Position numbers and translations under genes: made by a program
The notes under the pieces: generated by a model
Told to the model about the DNA's origin: nothing
Databases searched by the model: none
The model's input: only the letters and a program-made list of their open reading frames with translations
From: Candidatus Kapaibacterium sp.
Lineage (GTDB): Bacteria; Bacteroidota; Ignavibacteria; Kapaibacteriales; UBA2268
Assembly (NCBI GenBank): GCA_041675005.1
Contig: JBAYUQ010000006.1
Location: 9,574 to 73,573, forward strand
Length of the DNA stretch: 64,000 nucleotides
Reading direction: 5' to 3'
In this document: piece by piece, positions 3,648 to 44,239 of the stretch
Layout: the number at the start of each line of letters is the position of its first letter
How positions within the stretch are numbered: position 1 is the stretch's first letter

Positions 3648-4353
3648 ATTTCTCAACTATCGAACCACTACTATTCTTAATTATTTCCGATTTTATTCTG
3701 CCATCTTTATCTATAGCATAACCAGTAATAAAGAATACATTACCCTTATTGTCTGAAGTTATCTTCTCGAAATAATTATCGTTAGTTATATACACTATAC
3801 TGTCTTTCTGAGCAACAGACCCATCACTTTCAAAAGTATAACGAACAGTTAGATTACCATCAACATACTGATTATCGTACTTGGTTCTATCGTCACAACC
3901 ATCAACACCTTCGCACCTAACAATCTCAGTAATATTACCGTTTATATCATATTTTAGTTGTTCGTTGTCTAGTACTTCACCGGATTTATTAGTAGTTTTT
4001 TTGCTAACTATTTTACCATTTTCCAACACATATTGATGTAGAAGAATACCAATAGTATCGCCATTAGAAAATTTAATTTCCTGTTCCGAGCTATTACCAT
4101 CCTTATAACTATATTCAGATGTAGATTGCAACTTACCATTCTGGTTATATTCTACCTTTGAGATTATATCTCCTCTAGAATTGAATACCTTATATGATAC
4201 TTTACTTATTTTATGATCATCTATAGTCGAAACACGCCATTTCGTTTCTGATCTAACTTGTAATGTCTCATCATATTGGGGACCCAAAGCATTCTCACAC
4301 CCTACGAATGGGAGTATAGCAGCTAAAAGTAATATGTATGAAAGTTTTCTCAA
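3619..4353 (-). CDS. lipoprotein, hypothetical
   Basis: Signal peptide with lipobox LPFVGC; rest is low-complexity repeats. Confidence 0.45.
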   Translation of the reverse strand: MRKLSYILLLAAILPFVGCENALGPQYDETLQVRSETKWRVSTIDDHKISKVSYKVFNSRGDIISKVEYNQNGKLQSTSEYSYKDGNSSEQEIKFSNGDTIGILLHQYVLENGKIVSKKTTNKSGEVLDNEQLKYDINGNITEIVRCEGVDGCDDRTKYDNQYVDGNLTVRYTFESDGSVAQKDSIVYITNDNYFEKITSDNKGNVFFITGYAIDKDGRIKSEIIKNSSGSIVEKFIYEYTYFE

Positions 4354-4452
4354 AAAAATACTGTTTTAAATGTTGTTTAAACTACAAAAAATAATTGTAA
4401 AAAAAAAGCTCTATATTACTATAGAGCTTTAAATTTGATAAATATTTTATAT

Positions 4453-7400
4453 TTATTTTATTTTATTGAGGTTAAACATATATCTACTTCCCTTTCCTTC
4501 GAGTATCAGATAATAAGTCCCACTAGTCAAATTAGCTAAACTTAGCTGCTGTATAGAGGTAATTATACCTACAGTTCTTAACTCTTGGCCAGTTTGGCTG
4601 ATTAGAGTAGCACTATCTATATTCTGAGCTAACTCAACTGGTATATTGATAGTTACTTCTTCGCCAGCCGGATTCGGATAAATAGATATACCCGATTCAG
4701 ATGCTGATAGAACAGAGCCGATAACAGCGTCTTCTGTAGTGAATGACCATTCTTCCGACCAATCATTTCCAGTCTCACCTTCGAATGCCATAACTCTCCA
4801 ATAGTAAGTCTGTTCCTCTTCAAAATCATATACATCCTTAGAGTTAGTGGTTATGTTCGAATCATTATAGAATAAGTTAGTGAAACTTTCATTTTTAGAT
4901 ATTTGTAAATTGTAAGTTTCGGCACCTGGAGTAGTTTCCCATTTGAACAAGACTGATTTCTTTTCAATATCTATAGACCCATTTGCTGGGGCTAGTAGTG
5001 CAGTTCTAGCAAGACCAGTAGAGAAGTTCCATGGTACAGTCCAAGGGCTTACTGTATCGTTCAGAACAGCTCTTACTCTCCAATAATATGTTTTGTTAGT
5101 TTCGACAGAAGTAAGTTCGAAATTATGATCAGGTAAAGCCGATTGTTCAACAACAAATGGACCTGAGAACTCTGGTTTCAGAGATACTTGTAAATCATAC
5201 TTATACCCTTTTATTTCTGACCAATCTAATAGCACTGGAGCTTGGTGTCCACCACTATTATTAGCTGGGCTAATATGCATAGGTCTTTCTTGACCAGTTT
5301 TAAATGACCAGATTTCTGACCACGGACCTTTTACGTGGTTAGTATCCGTTGCTCTAACTCTCCAATAGTAATTGGCATTTGCCTCTAATTCAGAAAGTGG
5401 TTGTTGTACTGCACCCAGTGTTTGGTTATCTTGAGCTGGAATTGAGAAATCAGCAAAACGTGAAATCTGGATTTGATAATCAACTGCTTCATCTACTTTT
5501 TTCCACGTAAAGAGAACTGCGTCTGGTTGATTAGCAGCATTATTCAAAGGTAAAGTAAGTACAGGTGCAGCAAGTACGGTTCTAAACTTCCATATTTCTG
5601 AAAGTTGTCCTTGGCTACCATCCTCTCCTTCTACCACAGCGGCCCAATAGTAGTGTGTAAGAGGTGTTAATTTCTCATTAACTGCTAGTGTATAAGTAGT
5701 GTCTGTTAAACCAGTTTTAGTTAGCACCACATTAGTCATAGCAGCATCAGTAGCTACTATTAACTTATACTTATCTGCATCTTTTACTGACGACCATAAG
5801 AAAGTTGGAGTATGTGAAACTGAAATAGTATCTTTCACTGGTTCTATAAGTGTAGGCGGACCTATTAATGTAGTAAATTCATTAACTGACGACCAGTTAC
5901 TATATACACCACCTGTTTTGCCTCTAACTCTAAAAAAGTACTTAGTGTTTGGATTCAATTTATAGAATATATCATAGTAAGTGTTCGCTGTGATTATATC
6001 TTCGTAAGAGAAAGTGAAACTCTTGTTAGCAGAGATTTGGAAATTATACAAATCAGCTTTACCCGAAGTACTCCAATCAAACGATAAATCTAATGGTTGA
6101 TTCAAAGATTCATTTATTGGGCTTGCTAACTGAGGCACACCCATCTTGTTTCTGTTATTATACTTATAGAGAAGTGAACCAGAAAACATCAAATCTGCAT
6201 CTGAGTTTACAGCCATTTCGTAAATTCTACCAGTGTGGTAACCAGATTGCAATGAATCCCATTCTACTCCGCCATTTGTAGAGTGGTAAACTCCCCAATG
6301 TTGACTCAAACCAACATATAGTTCATTAGCTGAAGCGACCACAAAAGATGCTACTGATTGGTCAGGTTGTGATTGACCAAAATCACGAGCAGCTATTGGG
6401 ATATCCAATTTACTAAAGCTAGTAGCATTATTCTTAGATACATATAGTCCTTCATAAGTAGCAGCATATAAATTACCATAAGCAAAACTTAATTTACTTA
6501 TTGTTTTATTTAAGCTATATCCAGTGTTACTGAAAGTAGCACCACCATCAGTAGATTTGAATAATTTATTTACCATTTGTGCATCAGGTCTGAATAAATA
6601 GATGTTATTATTAGCATCCGCCTCTAATAGACAACCACTCGATGCGTCATCTGGATAATTTTGTATTCTAGTCCAAGCGGCTCCACCATCAGTTGATTTG
6701 TATAGCTCTTGTCTCACAGTTGGCGGCATTCCTTCGATGAAGAACATAATGATCGAATATACATCGCCATTTGGAGCCACAACCAAATCCATCATTGAGT
6801 CATCATTGTCACCAGGAGTGACTTTAGTCCAAGTATTACCTTTATCTGTAGAGATTACGGCATCATTATTATTTATACCTATCAAATTCCCATTTACGTA
6901 TTTTAATCTATTGACCATACCACCTGGATAGTTTGTAAGCTCAGTCCAATCTGTACCCAAATTTGAGGATTTGTACATTTTATCATTTACATTCAATACA
7001 AAATCAGATCCAGTGTTAACAATAAAACTAGTAACACCATAAGGGTCTAAAGAAACTTTGTCCCAATTTTTCCCTTTATTAGTACTCTTTACTAAACCCC
7101 TATCAAAATCATAGGCAAGTAAAGTACCATTTGAAAGTTGAGTCATATCAACTACACCAAAATTTCTTAGTATAGAAGGTAGCCACTCTGTATATGGTTG
7201 TGCGTTATAGAACCAAATACCATTTTCTCTAGTACCGACTACGGCACCTTCACTAGTATATTCGAAACAAGTGATTCCATTATCTTTTAGAGAGTCTGCT
7301 TCTGGTTGGTATTTGACCCACTGCAAAGCATCATTATTCGACTCCATCAGTCCCTTGTCATTCGTAGCCATTAGTATTATATCACTACTGATAACTGAAA

Positions 7401-38129: not shown

Positions 38130-39062
38130 ATGCTAGGTGAAATCAAAATAGTTAACTTACGGAAGATATGGAAAAATGAATATTCAAACTTTACACCTTG
38201 GTTATCTGAAAACCTTCATTTATTAGGTAAAGCAATTGGTATTGAACTAGAATTCGAAGCTAAAGAAGTTTCAGTCGGTCCATTCTCAGCAGATATTTTG
38301 GCAAAAGACACCGGGACTGATAAATTTGTAGTAATAGAGAACCAATTAGAAAAAACTGATCATGACCATTTAGGTAAATGTATTACTTACGCTTCTGTAC
38401 TCGACGCTTCAGCGGTTATTTGGATAGCATCTAAGTTTACAGATGAACATAAGAAAGCATTGGATTGGCTAAATGATCACACCTCAGAGGAGATTGGATT
38501 TTATGGTATTAAAGTAGAATTATGGCAAATTGAAAATTCTTTACCAGCTGTAAGATTTAATGTAGTTAGTCAACCAAATTTGGCTGTTAGACAAGCATCT
38601 AAAAGCAAAGAACAAACTGAATTGACAGAGAATAGAAGAACCCAGCTAAAATTTTGGGAGGAGTTTAGTACTAAACTTATCGAAACTCGGAAAATCGGTT
38701 CTGTTCAATCGCCCAGACCTCAATATTGGTTCGATGTTGCTTTAGGTAAATCAGGGATTCATCTTTCAAATACTTTTAATACTGAAACGAATGAAATAGG
38801 TGTACGGGTATATATCAATAATAAGAAAGTAGAAGATTGGTGGCCATATTTTGAATCGAGAAAAGTAGAAATTGAACAAAAAATGGGTATCAAACTAAAT
38901 TGGAATCCAAATCCTGACAACAAAGATAAAGTAATCATGCTAGTTAAGGCATTTAATTTAGAACAGAAAGAAGAGTGGGAAGCGGCATTAGATTGGTTAG
39001 TAGATTACACAGTGAGATTCAGAGAAGTATTTTCGAACGAAATCAAGAATAAAACCAAATAA
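38130..39062 (+). CDS. hypothetical protein with an N-terminal Hjc/YraN-like PD-(D/E)XK-fold segment (DUF4268-like?)
   Basis: GPFSADILAKD...KFVVIENQ resembles the D...(E)xK core of Hjc-type nucleases, with Q in the K position. Family assignment is uncertain. Confidence 0.35.
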   Translation: MLGEIKIVNLRKIWKNEYSNFTPWLSENLHLLGKAIGIELEFEAKEVSVGPFSADILAKDTGTDKFVVIENQLEKTDHDHLGKCITYASVLDASAVIWIASKFTDEHKKALDWLNDHTSEEIGFYGIKVELWQIENSLPAVRFNVVSQPNLAVRQASKSKEQTELTENRRTQLKFWEEFSTKLIETRKIGSVQSPRPQYWFDVALGKSGIHLSNTFNTETNEIGVRVYINNKKVEDWWPYFESRKVEIEQKMGIKLNWNPNPDNKDKVIMLVKAFNLEQKEEWEAALDWLVDYTVRFREVFSNEIKNKTK

Positions 39063-39088
39063 TAAATCCAGATTTAAACCTTTATTTC

Positions 39089-39400
39089 ATGAATGAAAAA
39101 CAAGTCATATTCACAAAGATAATCCTCTCCATAATATTGCTATTATGCTTATTGGATATGCCTTATGGATACTACCAGTTCGTCAGATTTGCGAGTATGA
39201 TTACTTTCGGATATCTTGCTTATAAAGAATACGAAGCCAAAGAGAGAAGTAATTTCTTTTTTATCTGGATAATTTCGGCTATTGCCTTTAACCCAATAAT
39301 AAAGTTTAGCTTTGGTAGAACGATATGGAATATAATAGATGTTGTATTAGCTTTACTTCTAGTTGTTTCAATTTGGAATGATAGGAAATCACAACAATAA
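39089..39400 (+). CDS. small 3-TM membrane protein
   Basis: Three hydrophobic helices; 103 aa. Confidence 0.4.
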   Translation: MNEKQVIFTKIILSIILLLCLLDMPYGYYQFVRFASMITFGYLAYKEYEAKERSNFFFIWIISAIAFNPIIKFSFGRTIWNIIDVVLALLLVVSIWNDRKSQQ

Positions 39401-39474
39401 CATTCGGATTAAGAGTACTCAAACAAGTTCACTAGATACAAAGTGCTATTAATCATTTAAATCCAAATACATTT

Positions 39475-39732
39475 TTAATTTATCATTGATTTCAAGAAGT
39501 TTATAATTATCAACTTCTCTTTCAAATCAGCAACTCCATACTCCACTTCCTCTTCCCTCAAAAATGAGAAACTTCCGGATTCAGAGACAAGTTTTTCTAT
39601 GCCTTTGGTGAGGATTCGGTCTTCGTATTTGGATAGGAGGAACTCAGCAAAATCAGCAACTTCCGAGATGTTATCTTCTGGAAGTTTCGAAATTGTGTTT
39701 ATAGTCTTTTCTATAAGTGCTTCTTTTGTCAT
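39475..39732 (-). CDS. small protein, DUF2281-like (antitoxin-like fold?)
   Basis: KLPEDNISEVADFAEFLLSKYED resembles the DUF2281 signature. No partner toxin is adjacent. Confidence 0.3.
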   Translation of the reverse strand: MTKEALIEKTINTISKLPEDNISEVADFAEFLLSKYEDRILTKGIEKLVSESGSFSFLREEEVEYGVADLKEKLIIINFLKSMIN

Positions 39733-39778: not shown

Positions 39779-41320
39779 TTACTCCCACTCAATAGTTCCG
39801 GGGGGTTTGCTAGTTATGTCATATACCACTCGGTTGATGCCTTTTATCTCGTTGATTATTCTGCTCGAGATTTTTTCCAATACATCATACGGCATAGGGT
39901 ACCACTCAGCAGTCATACCGTCGGTGCTTGTTACAGCACGGATAGCACAAGTGAACTCGTAAGTACGCTCGTCGCCCATTACTCCTACGCTTTTCACTGG
40001 TAGTAGTACGGCGAAGGCCTGCCATATCTCGTCGTATAGACCAGCTTCTGTGATTACATCTAAGTAGATAGCGTCTGCTTTTTGTAGGATTTCTATTTTC
40101 TCTGGTGAGATTTCTCCGAGTATTCTGATGCCTAGTCCAGGTCCAGGGAATGGATGTCTTTTGACGAACCACTCTGGTATTCCGAGCATACGCCCCACTT
40201 CGCGTACTTCATCTTTGAATAGCTCGCGGAATGGCTCTAATAATTTTAGGTTCATTTTCTCTGGCAAACCACCAACGTTGTGGTGACTCTTGATAGTAGC
40301 CGACGGCCCTTTGACAGAGACTGACTCTATAACGTCTGGGTACAAGGTTCCTTGGGCTAACCACTTAGCTGAGTCAACTCCTTGCGTTGCTCCATCGAAT
40401 AGGTCTATGAACGCCTTGCCGATTGCTTTTCTTTTTAGCTCGGGGTCGGAAACTCCTGCCAAACCACTGTAGAATGTATCGTGTCCGTTTATCACTTCTA
40501 TAGACATATCGAAATGCTTTTGGAATAGGTCATATATCTCACTGCTTTCGTTCATTCGCATTAGGCCAGAGTCTATGTGAATACAGTGTAGCTGATTGCC
40601 TATTGCTTTGTGGATTAACACAGCAGCTACAGTCGAGTCAACTCCTCCACTTAGTCCACAGATTACTTTTTCCGTGCCCACTTTGTCGCGAATTTCTTGT
40701 ATAGCGATTTCGATGAATGATTCTGCATTCCACGTATCTACGCAACCGCAGATATTACGGACGAAGTTCTCAAGTACTTTTTTACCTTCTAAAGAGTGGT
40801 GCACTTCCGGGTGGAATTGCACACCGTATATTTTCTTTTCGATATTAGCAATTGCACATATAGGAGCGTTCTCCGTATTGGCAATAGTTTGGAAGCCATC
40901 GGGCATTTTGCTTAGCGAATCGCCGTGGCTCATCCACATCTGTGCTTTGTCGGATATGCCTTCTAAAAGTGGGTTATCTTGAGTCACGTGCACTATCGCC
41001 TTGCCGTATTCTCGTTTTGCGGCTGCATCTACTTGCCCGTTTTGGGTGAAAGCGATGAGTTGCAATCCGTAGCAGATACCGAGAACTGGAATACCAAGCT
41101 CGAATACGTTGAAACTTGGGTGAGGCGCCTCTGGGGAGTACACGCTTGATGGTCCTCCCGAAAGGATAATACCTTTGGGATTCATTTCTTTTAATTTTTC
41201 TAATTCTATATTGAAGGGGTGTATTTCGGCGAAAACTCCAACTTCACGCACTTTTCGTGCTATTAGTTGAGTGTATTGCGAGCCGAAATCGAGTATTAAT
41301 ATTTTTTCTACATTTTCCAT
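39779..41320 (-). CDS. guaA: GMP synthase (glutamine-hydrolysing)
   Basis: GATase1 GICYGLQ with catalytic Cys, PP-loop SGGVDSTVAA, typical C-terminus. Confidence 0.9.
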   Translation of the reverse strand: MENVEKILILDFGSQYTQLIARKVREVGVFAEIHPFNIELEKLKEMNPKGIILSGGPSSVYSPEAPHPSFNVFELGIPVLGICYGLQLIAFTQNGQVDAAAKREYGKAIVHVTQDNPLLEGISDKAQMWMSHGDSLSKMPDGFQTIANTENAPICAIANIEKKIYGVQFHPEVHHSLEGKKVLENFVRNICGCVDTWNAESFIEIAIQEIRDKVGTEKVICGLSGGVDSTVAAVLIHKAIGNQLHCIHIDSGLMRMNESSEIYDLFQKHFDMSIEVINGHDTFYSGLAGVSDPELKRKAIGKAFIDLFDGATQGVDSAKWLAQGTLYPDVIESVSVKGPSATIKSHHNVGGLPEKMNLKLLEPFRELFKDEVREVGRMLGIPEWFVKRHPFPGPGLGIRILGEISPEKIEILQKADAIYLDVITEAGLYDEIWQAFAVLLPVKSVGVMGDERTYEFTCAIRAVTSTDGMTAEWYPMPYDVLEKISSRIINEIKGINRVVYDITSKPPGTIEWE

Positions 41321-41369
41321 AGTACAAAAATAGGAATAATTTGTGAAATTATAGAGCTGAAAGTTTTGA

Positions 41370-42341
41370 ATGATTTTAGTATATTTGGGATATGGAGAAA
41401 AAGCTAAGAGATATATATTAATGGGGTGGTTGTATTTAATTGTCGGTTTTATAATTTGGTCCCTTCTTGTTTGGACTCTTAGTCATTTTGAAATAGGTCC
41501 TTTTAAAACCGAACGGTTACCTATTAAGAGGATACAACCAACAGTTGTTGGTTATATAAATGATAAATTTGAAAACAAGATTATAATCATTCATAATGAG
41601 AAGATGCAATTCTCATATTTTGTAAGTAAAAATGATGATGAAAATGACGTACTCAAATTAAAATTAGAACTACCTTGGTCAAATCTAGATGAATTCGCTG
41701 CGATAATCTCAGAAATAGAAGTTGTAGAAGAGGAATTGTTAAGGAGGAAAGAAATCATAAAGGGTGCACCATTCAATAACTTATATCATATTACTCATAT
41801 AAATAATATTTCCAGTATTCTTGAAAATGGATTGTTATCAGATAATCATTTACAAAGAGACAATATTAATTTCGAAAACATTGCAGACCTTGAGGTTAAA
41901 GGTCATCGAGAAAAAACTGAAAGTATATACAATAAGTCGATTTTAGAATATGTACCACTTTATTTCACTCCTAAAACACCAATGTTGTACAAAAAACAAG
42001 ATATAAGTAATAATCTAGTTGTAATAGTAATTCATCCCTTTGTATTATTCGAAAAAGATTTAATATTCACTGATGGTAATGCTTCTTCGAAAAAGACAAA
42101 GTTCTATAGTGATTTAAATGATCTAAAATGTTTAGATTGGGAATGTATCAGGTCACAATTCTGGACAAAATTTGAAGATGGTAAAAGAAAACGATGTTCA
42201 GAAGTTTTAGTTCATGATAGGATTGATGTAAATTACTTCAACAAAATAGTATGCAATAATAAAAAATTATATGATGAGTTATCTATTAATTATTCGGAAT
42301 CTAATATTAAAATTGAATTAGATAATAAATATTTCTTTTAG
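41370..42341 (+). CDS. darT: DarT-family ssDNA thymidine ADP-ribosyltransferase (toxin); the true start is probably downstream, at 41421 or 41604
   Basis: Compared with Thermus DarT: LYHITHINNISSILENGLLS vs IYHITHVDNLPSILREGGLW; YVPLYFTPKTPMLY vs YVPFYFAPRSPMLY; LIFTDGNA; LDWECI; catalytic-Glu region SEVLVHD. Confidence 0.8.
   Translation: MILVYLGYGEKAKRYILMGWLYLIVGFIIWSLLVWTLSHFEIGPFKTERLPIKRIQPTVVGYINDKFENKIIIIHNEKMQFSYFVSKNDDENDVLKLKLELPWSNLDEFAAIISEIEVVEEELLRRKEIIKGAPFNNLYHITHINNISSILENGLLSDNHLQRDNINFENIADLEVKGHREKTESIYNKSILEYVPLYFTPKTPMLYKKQDISNNLVVIVIHPFVLFEKDLIFTDGNASSKKTKFYSDLNDLKCLDWECIRSQFWTKFEDGKRKRCSEVLVHDRIDVNYFNKIVCNNKKLYDELSINYSESNIKIELDNKYFF
41380..41387 (+). promoter_or_regulatory. 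candidate Bacteroidota-type -7 promoter element TATATTTG
   Basis: Matches TAnnTTTG. It lies inside the 5' end of the longest darT ORF, arguing for a downstream start. Confidence 0.3.
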
Positions 42342-42351
42342 CGGGATATAA

Positions 42352-43032
42352 ATGATTAAACATATAGTAGGAAATATCTTCACAACCAAAAAGCAAACTA
42401 TAGTAAATACTGTAAATTGTGTTGGAGTAATGGGTGCAGGGATTGCGCTAGAATTTAGACTTAGATACCCTGACATGTATCAAAAGTATGTTCAATTATG
42501 CAGCCAGAATTTGATAGATATAGGAAAACTATGGATATACAAAACTGAGAAAAAAAGAATATTAAATTTTCCAACTAAAAAGCATTGGAAAGCTCCTACA
42601 AAAGAGATTTATTTGCATAAAGGGTTAGAAAAGTTCTCAATGACATATAAAGAAAAAGGAATTACTTCAATAGCTTTTCCGCTTTTAGGAGCAAGTAATG
42701 GAGGGTTATCTAAAGAAAATTCTTTGTCAATTATGAAAGATTATCTATCTAAATGTGACATCGATATTGAAATATACGAGTATAGTCCTTTGGTTTATGA
42801 TGACCTTTTCTTGAACTTTAAAGATATATGGAATTCCAAATCACTTCATGAGCTATCTAATGAATCAGGTATATCTTTAAAGTATATTGAACGTATAAAT
42901 GCTGGCTTAGATTTAGAAAATATTAGAACATTAAGTCAATTAGCTAGTATTAAAGGAATTGGGTTTAAAACACTTGAGAAATCTTTTTATTACGTTAACA
43001 ATTCAAGTAAGCAAAACACACTCAATTTTTAA
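42352..43032 (+). CDS. darG: DarG-like macrodomain antitoxin; short form with a C-terminal HhH-like tail
   Basis: Macrodomain signature GNIFTT..QTIVNTVNCVGVMGAGIALEF. Immediately downstream of darT. C-terminal IKGIGFKTLEK. Confidence 0.75.
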   Translation: MIKHIVGNIFTTKKQTIVNTVNCVGVMGAGIALEFRLRYPDMYQKYVQLCSQNLIDIGKLWIYKTEKKRILNFPTKKHWKAPTKEIYLHKGLEKFSMTYKEKGITSIAFPLLGASNGGLSKENSLSIMKDYLSKCDIDIEIYEYSPLVYDDLFLNFKDIWNSKSLHELSNESGISLKYIERINAGLDLENIRTLSQLASIKGIGFKTLEKSFYYVNNSSKQNTLNF

Positions 43033-43068
43033 TCTAAATAACCTCTTTAAATGAATTTTCGAGAGAAA

Positions 43069-43092
43069 AAGGTGGTATTAAAGGTGGTATTA
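43069..43092 (+). repeat. perfect 12-bp tandem duplication (AAGGTGGTATTA x2)
   Basis: Read directly from the sequence. It encodes a KGGI-KGGI duplication in the frame of the HTH remnant. Confidence 0.6.
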
Positions 43093-43121
43093 AGTTAACA
43101 AAAAGACAAAAAGAAGTATTA

Positions 43122-43292
43122 ATGTTAATAGTAGAAAATCCTTCAATCGACCATGACACACTTGCTATCTCGTTAAGTATAAATAAGTCCGCTATTCAAA
43201 AACACATTAAGATGCTGAAAGAAAAAGGTGTTATTGAAAGAATTGGGGGTAAAAAACTTGGCTATTGGGAAATCATAGGTGAAGCAGATTGA
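43122..43292 (+). pseudogene. 3' remnant of a gene encoding a winged-helix HTH (the C-terminal DNA-binding domain of RecG-like / AlbA_2-type putative regulators)
   Basis: The frame is open from 43048 with no start codon until the ATG at 43122. It encodes ...LTKRQKEVLMLIVENPSIDHDTLAISLSINKSAIQKHIKMLKEKGVIERIGGKKLGYWEI. Upstream catalytic domains are missing. Confidence 0.35.
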
Positions 43293-44239
43293 AAACCATC
43301 CTCCAAACACCGAGATTAATACTCAGAGAATTTGAACTCTCGGATGCTGAGGATATGTATGAACTGAACTCAGATGACGAAGTTCTAAGATATACTGGAA
43401 ACTCAGCTTTTGGGTCAGTGGAAGATGCTCGTGGGTTTCTTTCTAATTACAATAACTATAAGAAAAATGGATATGGCCGTTGGGTAGTGATAAATAAGGA
43501 AAGTAAAGAATTTCTTGGCTGGTGTGGGCTTAAATATCACAGTGAAGGGTTTACAGATATTGGTTTTCGGTTTCACAGGAAGTATTGGGGAACAGGATAT
43601 GCAACTGAGTCAGCTAACTCTGTATTAGAATATGCTTTCAACACACTCGGTTTGACCGAGATTATAGGACGAGCTTCACAAGATAATATCGCTTCGATAA
43701 AAGTATTAGAGAAAATAGGCATGAAATTTTGGAAAATTGACTCTTGTGATGGTATTCCAAATTCAGTATATTACAAAATAGAAAATCTAAATACGAGAAA
43801 TACAAAAATGAACAAAAACCTTAGCGTAACGCATAGCATAGAAATAGATGGCTCGCCTGCAGATGTATGGGATGCAATGACTAATCCTAATAAGATAAAA
43901 GTATATCTGTACGGTACTGAAACTATAACAGATTGGAAAGTTGGCAGTCCTATTATTTTCCAAGGGGAATACGAAGGACACCAGTACAAAGACAAGGGCA
44001 ATGTATTAGAAAACGAGCCAAATAAATTACTCAAATACAACTATTGGAGTGGTTTTTCGGGTGCGGAAGATATACCAGAGAACTATCAGATTATAACATA
44101 CAAAATTGATGATATTGGGGATGGCAAAACAGTCTTCACATGGTACCAAGAAGGCTTCCAAAGCGAAGAAAATATGAAGCACTCACAAGATGGAATGCCT
44201 GCTATGTTAGAGCAAATAAAATATGTGGTTGAGGGTTAA
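43289..44239 (+). CDS. GNAT N-acetyltransferase (RimJ/RimL-like) fused to a C-terminal SRPBCC/AHSA1-like domain
   Basis: TTG start overlapping the TGA of the HTH remnant. N-terminal LILREFELSDAEDMYEL...RYTG and GNAT motif A. C-terminal Bet v1-like SVTHSIEIDGSPADVWDAMTNPNKI... Confidence 0.6.
   Translation: MKTILQTPRLILREFELSDAEDMYELNSDDEVLRYTGNSAFGSVEDARGFLSNYNNYKKNGYGRWVVINKESKEFLGWCGLKYHSEGFTDIGFRFHRKYWGTGYATESANSVLEYAFNTLGLTEIIGRASQDNIASIKVLEKIGMKFWKIDSCDGIPNSVYYKIENLNTRNTKMNKNLSVTHSIEIDGSPADVWDAMTNPNKIKVYLYGTETITDWKVGSPIIFQGEYEGHQYKDKGNVLENEPNKLLKYNYWSGFSGAEDIPENYQIITYKIDDIGDGKTVFTWYQEGFQSEENMKHSQDGMPAMLEQIKYVVEG

Follow-up and report, generated by a model that had tools for sequence, protein, structure and literature searches.

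A DarT/DarG cassette of Candidatus Kapaibacterium with a predicted membrane anchor on the toxin and a helix-hairpin-helix-like tail on the antitoxin

The DNA analysed here is a 64,000-nucleotide window from a Candidatus Kapaibacterium metagenome-assembled genome (MAG); all coordinates refer to this window and, unless indicated otherwise, to its plus strand. To judge by its sequence, the locus at 41421-43032 is a genuine two-gene DarT/DarG DNA ADP-ribosylation toxin-antitoxin cassette, with two departures from the characterised systems. The DarT toxin is preceded by an extension with a predicted transmembrane (TM) helix, and the DarG antitoxin consists of a macrodomain and a short tail that resembles a tandem helix-hairpin-helix (HhH) fold. 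The identification is solid, and the pattern reaches well beyond the window; the mechanism is what we infer from it.

Work on DarTG so far has dealt with single-domain DarT toxins and with two or three types of antitoxin, and neutralisation by macrodomain DarG has been thought to combine hydrolysis with direct toxin binding. This locus and its relatives appear to form a large family whose antitoxins have a tail of DNA-binding type instead of the toxin-binding domain, and in which the N-terminus of DarT is a hot spot for accessory modules, a membrane anchor being present in about 20% of the sampled representatives. If this is true, one has to ask how a DNA-damaging toxin stays harmless without a binding inhibitor, and subcellular placement would join the modes of regulation of toxin-antitoxin defence. 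The present DarG equivalog models (NCBIfam, PADLOC) under-call this macrodomain-HhH family.

Catalytic domains and features of the cassette

The longest open reading frame (ORF) covering the toxin gene (41370..42341, plus strand, 323 aa) matches the Pfam DarT family PF14487 at aa 139-322 with E=1.7e-45; the score is 155.7 bits against a cutoff of 22.5, and the match spans profile positions 1-200 of 201. The same ORF matches the PADLOC DarT model with E=5e-47. The best PDB matches by sequence are the Thermosipho africanus fusion protein (7omu, E=7.3e-24) and Thermus DarT (7omv, E=7e-13), and E. coli DarT1 is a weaker match (E=5.8e-9). The glutamate of the SEVLV motif (E261 of the 306-aa protein that starts at 41421) aligns with the Thermus catalytic position E160, which is Ala in 7omv, a crystallised mutant, and is invariant in an alignment of 13 DarT proteins. 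On these grounds, DarT looks like a catalytically competent DNA ADP-ribosyltransferase.

The downstream ORF (42352..43032, 226 aa) matches Pfam Macro with E=9.4e-16. It also matches the PADLOC DarG model (E=2.1e-51), only at model positions 1-146 of 329, and NCBIfam NF048014, only at positions 1-149 of 338. In the alignment with the Thermus DarG macrodomain, the lysine of FPTKKHW (Lys76) falls on the TK lysine, catalytic K80 (PMC5179494). The counterparts of Thermus N22, K80 and G119, all three experimentally shown to be important for hydrolysis (PMC5179494), are invariant in 36 DarG homologues, and the DarG macrodomain, too, looks catalytically competent. The window DarT is nearer to DarT2 than to DarT1 in sequence and structure, and its partner is a macrodomain, not NADAR. 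Because the PDB matches favour the Thermus and Thermosipho enzymes, the catalytic residues are conserved and the partner is a macrodomain, we assign the cassette by sequence to the macrodomain (DarTG2) class of PMC11543638.

A first-pass annotation made from the DNA alone had proposed a DarT toxin and a macrodomain antitoxin in an operon beside guaA. All of this is borne out: both domains give significant Pfam matches, the catalytic residues align with those of Thermus, and the two genes are separated by 10 bp and lie next to guaA. The features of the locus are as follows.

39779..41320, minus strand: guaA (GMP synthase), divergent housekeeping neighbour; Pfam GATase, NAD_synthase, GMP_synt_C
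41322..41400, no strand assigned: conserved guaA-darT intergenic or leader region; 85% identity to a syntenic relative (L002)
41421..42341, plus strand: darT coding sequence, 306 aa, supported start; same as NCBI protein call P0001
41424..41486, plus strand: predicted N-terminal TM helix, aa 2-22; Kyte-Doolittle (KD) 19-mer mean 1.97, helix in the AlphaFold2 (AF2) model
41541..41765, plus strand: small domain of four strands and two helices, aa 41-115, located after the TM helix and before the DarT domain
41784..42335, plus strand: DarT ADP-ribosyltransferase domain; catalytic Glu codon 42201-42203
42352..43032, plus strand: darG coding sequence, 226 aa, 10 bp past the darT stop; 100% identical to P0015
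42352..42786, plus strand: DarG-type macrodomain, aa 1-145; catalytic Lys76 codon 42577-42579
42793..43029, plus strand: conserved tandem HhH-like tail, aa 148-226; GIG motif 42955-42963

The N-terminal extension of DarT

Ahead of the DarT domain, 134 consecutive codons of the DarT frame are free of stops (analytic probability about 5e-5), and 0 of 20000 shuffles remain open over this length. Codon-usage log-odds are 0.194 bits per codon for 41421-41771, similar to 0.191 for the DarT domain and 0.200 for DarG, and the DarT frame has the best score of the six frames in every sub-segment upstream. An independent 1172-bp contig from a related organism (L002) has the same guaA-darT-darG arrangement. 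Its DarT, 57% identical to that of the window, is a single continuous frame with the hydrophobic segment first, and the alignment of the two proteins enters the extension for about 70 residues. As the frame is open, codon usage is like that in the rest of the gene and L002 has an extension at the same site, the extension can be regarded, on sequence evidence, as translated.

Translation most likely starts at 41421 and not at 41370, as suggested by a sharp break in conservation. Nucleotide identity to L002 is 85% over 41322-41400 and falls to about 37-38% from 41401 on, the TM-coding stretch included; the L002 counterpart of ATG 41370 does not share the reading frame of darT, and the NCBI call P0001 also begins at 41421. 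A start at 41370, within a conserved non-coding block, was therefore rejected, and the most plausible role of 41370-41400 is that of a conserved regulatory or leader sequence. The first-pass annotation had deduced a start at 41421 or 41604 from a TAnnTTTG box. The box (TAtaTTTG, 41380-41387) is indeed inside the conserved block, but the motif occurs 40 times on the plus strand of the window, so that the box alone is weak evidence. Of the two proposed positions, 41421 agrees with the frame, the conservation and the NCBI call; 41604 is disfavoured, as the open frame, the codon usage and a weak similarity to L002 all begin before it and no Met is present in this part of L002.

Counted from 41421 the extension has 120 residues, fewer than the roughly 135 first suggested, and its TM helix stands. 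The protein begins MGWLYLIVGFIIWSLLVWTL, and the hydrophobic segment GWLYLIVGFIIWSLLVWTL has a KD 19-mer mean of 1.97 and is modelled by AF2 as a helix at residues 2-22. A disordered linker (aa 23-40) joins it to a small β/α domain of four strands and two helices (aa 41-115), modelled with a predicted local distance difference test score (pLDDT) of about 85-89 save for one 10-residue block at 58. A search of the extension against 1.84 billion representative proteins found no credible homologue or conserved domain; the sole match, to a 2534-aa protein (E=8e-6), is marginal and probably compositional. What is conserved in the extension thus seems to be its architecture and not its sequence. A lipoprotein or cleavable signal peptide was also considered and rejected: from 41421 the protein has neither a basic n-region nor a lipobox Cys, and its hydrophobic run spans about 20 residues.

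The hydrophobic N-terminus recurs in L002, in Bacteroides loci and across the DarT family. We surveyed 122 cluster representatives of DarT (117 from a profile search, plus the hits of the first search), defining as bare the proteins with fewer than 45 aa before the domain and as TM forms those with an N-terminal 19-mer KD of at least 1.96. The set contains 66 bare proteins, 25 TM forms and 31 other extensions whose maximum KD is at most 1.36, so hydrophobicity is cleanly bimodal. Summed over the 25 TM forms, only 4 Lys and Arg residues are found in the 15 positions before the helix, versus 77 in the 15 positions after it. This positive-inside signature predicts an N-out/C-in anchor with the catalytic domain in the cytoplasm. 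TM forms occupy at least five separate places in a neighbour-joining tree of DarT domains, which has no support values and is indicative only. Contigs of human-gut Bacteroides encode a 305-aa TM-DarT that starts with MEIILFFILVVVAIPIISVVFITTL, has no Met between the helix and the DarT domain, and is followed by a DarG 65% identical to that of the window. The bimodal hydrophobicity, the charge bias, the several positions in the tree and the Bacteroides loci together argue that the TM helix is a selected feature. A membrane-anchored DarT, which the first-pass annotation had called unusual, is so in relation to the characterised Thermus, Mycobacterium and E. coli systems; it is not rare, being found in about one-fifth of related DarTs.

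In Bacteroides, the TM-DarT and short DarG genes are preceded by a gene for a 96-97-aa Xre-type helix-turn-helix (HTH) protein, whose stop overlaps the darT start (L003:2787-3080, with equivalents in L004, L005, L007 and L010). Several of these loci adjoin resolvase genes and represent a three-gene mobile version, which the window does not have.

The antitoxin tail, its toxin partners and the genomic setting

The part of DarG that follows the macrodomain (aa 148-226, about 80 residues) is modelled as five helices with pLDDT of about 90, and its residues D150, L197, G202, G204, E209 and K210 are invariant in the 36 homologues. Pfam models of the HHH family (HHH_3, HHH_5, HHH_8, HHH) match 8 of the 10 tails that were scanned and are the top match in 7; one tail in 10 passes the Pfam gathering score. 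The canonical C-terminal DarT-binding domain (about 180 aa) is not matched in the PADLOC and NCBIfam models, and the protein stops at aa 226. Both the sequence and the model thus suggest that the tail is a tandem HhH-type fold in place of the DarT-binding domain. HhH motifs typically bind the DNA backbone non-specifically.

This form of the antitoxin is widespread. Almost all of the 120 best database matches to DarG are 218-249 aa long, with query coverage of at least 93%; the 120 matches reach into the tail, and one cluster representative is 86% identical. A metagenome scan found more than 571 stretches encoding DarG relatives, and 78 of the 80 best match beyond residue 211, into the tail. 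By sequence, then, the macrodomain-HhH DarG is a large and common family. The proposal that a tail with an HhH-type GIG motif substitutes for the canonical domain is upheld, and so is the length of 226 aa, with the tail measuring about 80 and not about 55 residues; "unusual" describes this minimal DarG in comparison to the characterised systems and not in sequence databases.

The toxins encoded next to these antitoxins were compared at 89 loci: the 80 best loci of the metagenome scan (L011-L090), one locus from a genome (L001) and 8 loci from Bacteroides (L003-L010). About 17 of the 89 could not be classified, as the upstream sequence is too short or the contig ends within darT. DarT is bare (about 200 aa) at 19 loci, TM-anchored at 12 (272-402 aa; 6 of them in Bacteroides), and extended by a soluble N-terminal segment at 13. 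Three loci were classed as giant by a local DarT hidden Markov model (HMM), and further giant ORFs, from 990 to more than 1330 aa, are located directly upstream of the antitoxin gene in L034, L051, L059, L062-L064, L069, L072, L084, L085 and L090. All three giants tested with Pfam (L034, L059, L064) have a C-terminal DarT domain (E=1e-13 to 1e-25), and nothing else was recognisable by Pfam in their roughly 1000 N-terminal residues; the local HMM had overlooked divergent giant DarT domains that Pfam detected. The N-terminal modules at the census loci include a TM helix plus tetratricopeptide repeats (TPR), pentapeptide repeats and Sel1, to which the wider DarT set adds leucine-rich (LRR) and HEAT repeats. 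Since partner DarTs may have bare, TM, soluble, giant or repeat-module N-termini, the DarT N-terminus is, by this comparison, a variable accessory position, and the TM helix with its β/α module in the window is one occupant. A scan of genome contigs with the window DarG found one locus, in a Campylobacteraceae MAG, with a bare DarT.

Repeat modules are seen in L021, L032 and L081, in P0141, P0147, P0162, P0177, P0191, P0212 and P0215, and in other DarTs; a 315-aa form made of a TM helix, TPR and DarT is especially common. Pedobacter agri P0168, which starts with MFLFFRLRQRKPKEKLTFIDLNEHNGKL, looks like an N-terminally truncated call of the same form. In L064 and L084 the giant gene is followed by an ORF of about 1320-1330 aa, which in L064 encodes a DEAD/Helicase_C protein, and giant DarT, macrodomain-HhH DarG and this protein may make up a three-gene DarT-based system. 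In P0011 (479 aa; 4.26-Mb genome), a DarT with a long N-terminal extension continues in frame into the last third of a macrodomain and the HhH tail, apparently as the result of a deletion that joined darT to darG, with loss of most of the antitoxin catalytic domain. Four viral contigs from IMG/VR (L095-L098) contain a full-length macrodomain-HhH gene at 4001-4669, with only an ORF of 61-130 aa immediately upstream and no DarT domain detected in the locus. These viral proteins could be a phage counter-defence against DarT.

In the window, darT and darG are on the same strand, and their order is kept in L002 and in 43 further loci with a short gap. The cassette is placed between guaA and a GNAT/AHSA1 gene (43289-44239). 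Database entries identical to both proteins come from a Candidatus Kapaibacterium MAG and are named by NCBI "DUF4433 domain-containing protein" (306 aa) and "macro domain-containing protein". GC content is 27-29% in the cassette, 44-47% in guaA and about 36% in the genes downstream; the surrounding genes are of the housekeeping type, and no neighbouring defence-island or mobile-element gene was seen among them. The low GC content relative to the flanks and the ordinary surroundings point to a horizontally acquired, stand-alone two-gene module. A scan for sigma-70 promoters and terminators gave 15 sites versus 13 expected and 0 terminators, sigma-70 being the wrong promoter model for this lineage.

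Directly after the darG stop there is an open frame of 84 codons (43038-43289, plus strand), whose first ATG is only at 43122. It encodes GGIKGGIKLTKRQKEVL followed by a winged HTH (Pfam HTH_24 and HTH_11, with weak NCBIfam matches to MarR, LexA and Csa3-like proteins), and by its sequence looks like the C-terminal part of a larger regulator whose gene has been truncated at the 5' end; the boundary of the inserted low-GC cassette may lie here. On the far side of guaA, a second low-GC stretch (38130-39732, 30-34% GC) has small genes without known function: DUF4268 (310 aa), DUF6804 (103 aa, hydrophobic) and DUF2281 (85 aa, minus strand).

Mode of action and relation to known systems

DarT2 ADP-ribosylates thymidine in single-stranded DNA, and the DarG macrodomain reverses the modification (PMC5179494). 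The Thermus macrodomain alone rescues from toxicity; inhibition of DarT through binding is seen only with full-length DarG K80A (PMC5179494). DarTG systems are documented to defend against phages by abortive infection (cited in PMC13069673). For the window, the explanation that we prefer, and hold to be reasonably probable, is a horizontally acquired cassette of the DarTG2 class with a membrane-tethered, cytoplasmic DarT, a DarG that acts only by hydrolysis, and a tail held on DNA. A single N-out/C-in helix would tether DarT to the cytoplasmic face of the inner membrane, with the disordered linker and the lineage-specific β/α domain joining it to the catalytic domain. Soluble DarG would strip ADP-ribose from DNA by its macrodomain glycohydrolase activity and, as the DarT-binding domain is missing, would most likely counter DarT as type IV antitoxins do, solely by reversing its reaction enzymatically; the tandem HhH tail of DarG would probably keep the enzyme on DNA and raise its residence there. 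The variable N-terminus of DarT is most likely a localisation or trigger-sensing module, and would govern the time and place at which DarT gets ahead of DarG, phage infection being one example.

More tentatively, and with a chance that we rate as modest at best, all macrodomain-HhH DarGs and N-terminally decorated DarTs may be a distinct, widespread type of DarTG, in which the antitoxin never binds the toxin and control is spatial or kinetic. DarG would then ride the chromosome by means of its HhH tail and erase modifications there, and DarT, parked at the membrane or on a TPR, Sel1, LRR, pentapeptide or giant sensor, would modify DNA at that site. Its targets could be, for example, an entering or a membrane-associated replicating phage genome, so that the form found in the window would be a defence enzyme of the DNA entry point.

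Several observations weigh against the preferred explanation or parts of it. Both proteins miss their NCBIfam equivalog cutoffs: DarT scores 141.5 bits with NF048013 (toxin_DarT), just short of 150, and DarG 166 bits with NF048014, where the cutoff is 250. The window tail has a sub-threshold score with Pfam HHH (15.6 bits, threshold 27) and, by count from the sequence, no net positive charge. Bare DarTs pair with the same type of DarG, so the anchor is dispensable for pairing. The TM-coding stretch taken alone has weak codon usage (-0.11 bits per codon), yet the DarT frame is still the top of six there, and in L002 the sole in-frame start that includes the full hydrophobic segment is a TTG right after a stop codon, the gene caller having taken a later TTG. 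These last two points would fit an untranslated TM segment, with a soluble DarT made from ATG 41604 or from a non-ATG codon and the "helix" being a T-rich 5' leader, as would the drop of nucleotide identity to L002 (about 38% over this stretch) and the fact that bare DarTs are the commonest form. Such a leader is quite unlikely in view of the 134 open codons that no shuffle reproduced, the position of ATG 41421 immediately before the helix and the agreeing NCBI start, and the two well-separated hydrophobicity classes of extensions; a Lys and Arg bias of 4 versus 77 is unexpected in untranslated DNA, and several loci have an ATG right before the TM segment and no further ATG before the DarT domain. 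We give very little credence to the idea that the hydrophobic N-terminus is an export signal, with DarT as a secreted or surface interbacterial toxin and DarG as its cytoplasmic immunity protein in the style of polymorphic toxins. It is true that the secreted nucleotide-modifying ADP-ribosyltransferases (ARTs) ScARP and Scabin have N-terminal TM or signal sequences (PMC12945103), that in some giant relatives the DarT domain is C-terminal and an immunity-like macrodomain gene comes next, and that a start at 41370 would put the basic residues K, K and R before the helix. That start, however, is disfavoured; the segment from 41421 lacks the features of a signal peptide, as discussed above, and has no AxA site after it; the charge bias of the 25 homologues places the C-terminal side in the cytoplasm; and domain scans show no secretion-associated domain (type IX secretion tail, Rhs, PAAR). 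Charge bias and coding evidence, both read from sequence, thus disfavour the untranslated leader and the export signal alike.

A different question is whether the HhH tail is a substitute DarT-binding module, so that type II-like binding is kept alongside hydrolysis. The tail is strongly conserved, has the same position as the canonical DarT-binding domain and carries no net positive charge, and it co-occurs with DarTs that have very different N-termini and one conserved catalytic domain, all of which suits a toxin-binding role. Its fold and Pfam signal are nevertheless those of DNA-backbone binders, and tailed homologues exist on viral contigs without an adjacent DarT, which makes toxin binding fairly unlikely. 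That the cassette is a decaying or non-functional remnant without a current role is very improbable. It adjoins the apparently truncated winged-HTH fragment, both proteins miss the equivalog cutoffs, and frameshifted or truncated DarT partners are seen elsewhere (L038, L056, L087); but both ORFs are intact, with every family-invariant and catalytic residue present, L002 retains the same arrangement at the same locus at 57% DarT identity, and a DarG cluster representative exists at 86% identity.

The recognised types of DarG are NADAR (DarG1), macrodomain with binding domain (DarG2) and ARH-like DarG3 (PMC11543638, PMC13069673), and nucleotide-modifying ARTs besides PARPs have been described as "mostly single-domain proteins" (2026, PMC12945103). 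In the searchable full-text literature, which leaves out most subscription papers and in which the De Souza/Aravind ART survey was not searched for, neither a TM-DarT nor a macrodomain-HhH DarG is described. In the DarTG2 systems of Thermus aquaticus and M. tuberculosis (PDB: 7omv, 5m31, 5m3i, 7yk3), DarT is a single domain of about 210-240 aa, whereas the window DarT has 120 additional residues with the TM helix, linker and β/α domain. The characterised DarG2 proteins are about 330-350 aa long with a C-terminal DarT-binding domain (PMC11543638), and the window DarG has the HhH-like tail of about 80 aa instead. Thermosipho africanus 7omu combines toxin and antitoxin in one 406-aa polypeptide with neither a TM helix nor an HhH tail, in contrast to the two genes of the window. 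DarTG1 (E. coli C7, PDB: 8baq) has a NADAR antitoxin and modifies guanosine; the window antitoxin is a macrodomain, and its DarT is nearer to DarT2.

Two further groups invite comparison. ScARP and Scabin, of the pierisin family, are likewise nucleic-acid ARTs with an N-terminal hydrophobic segment (PMC12945103, PMC8120803), but these are secreted members of the CTX family whose catalytic domain is extracellular, unlike the window protein, which is of the DTX/DarT family and has a catalytic domain predicted to be cytoplasmic. DarHTG with DarG3 (Liu-DS3, NAR 2026, PMC13069673) is a precedent for the diversification of DarTG by antitoxin swap and accessory modules. A UvrD-like helicase gene and an ARH-type antitoxin have been added in that system, whereas the window has a DarG-type macrodomain, and its accessory module is an N-terminal fusion to DarT.

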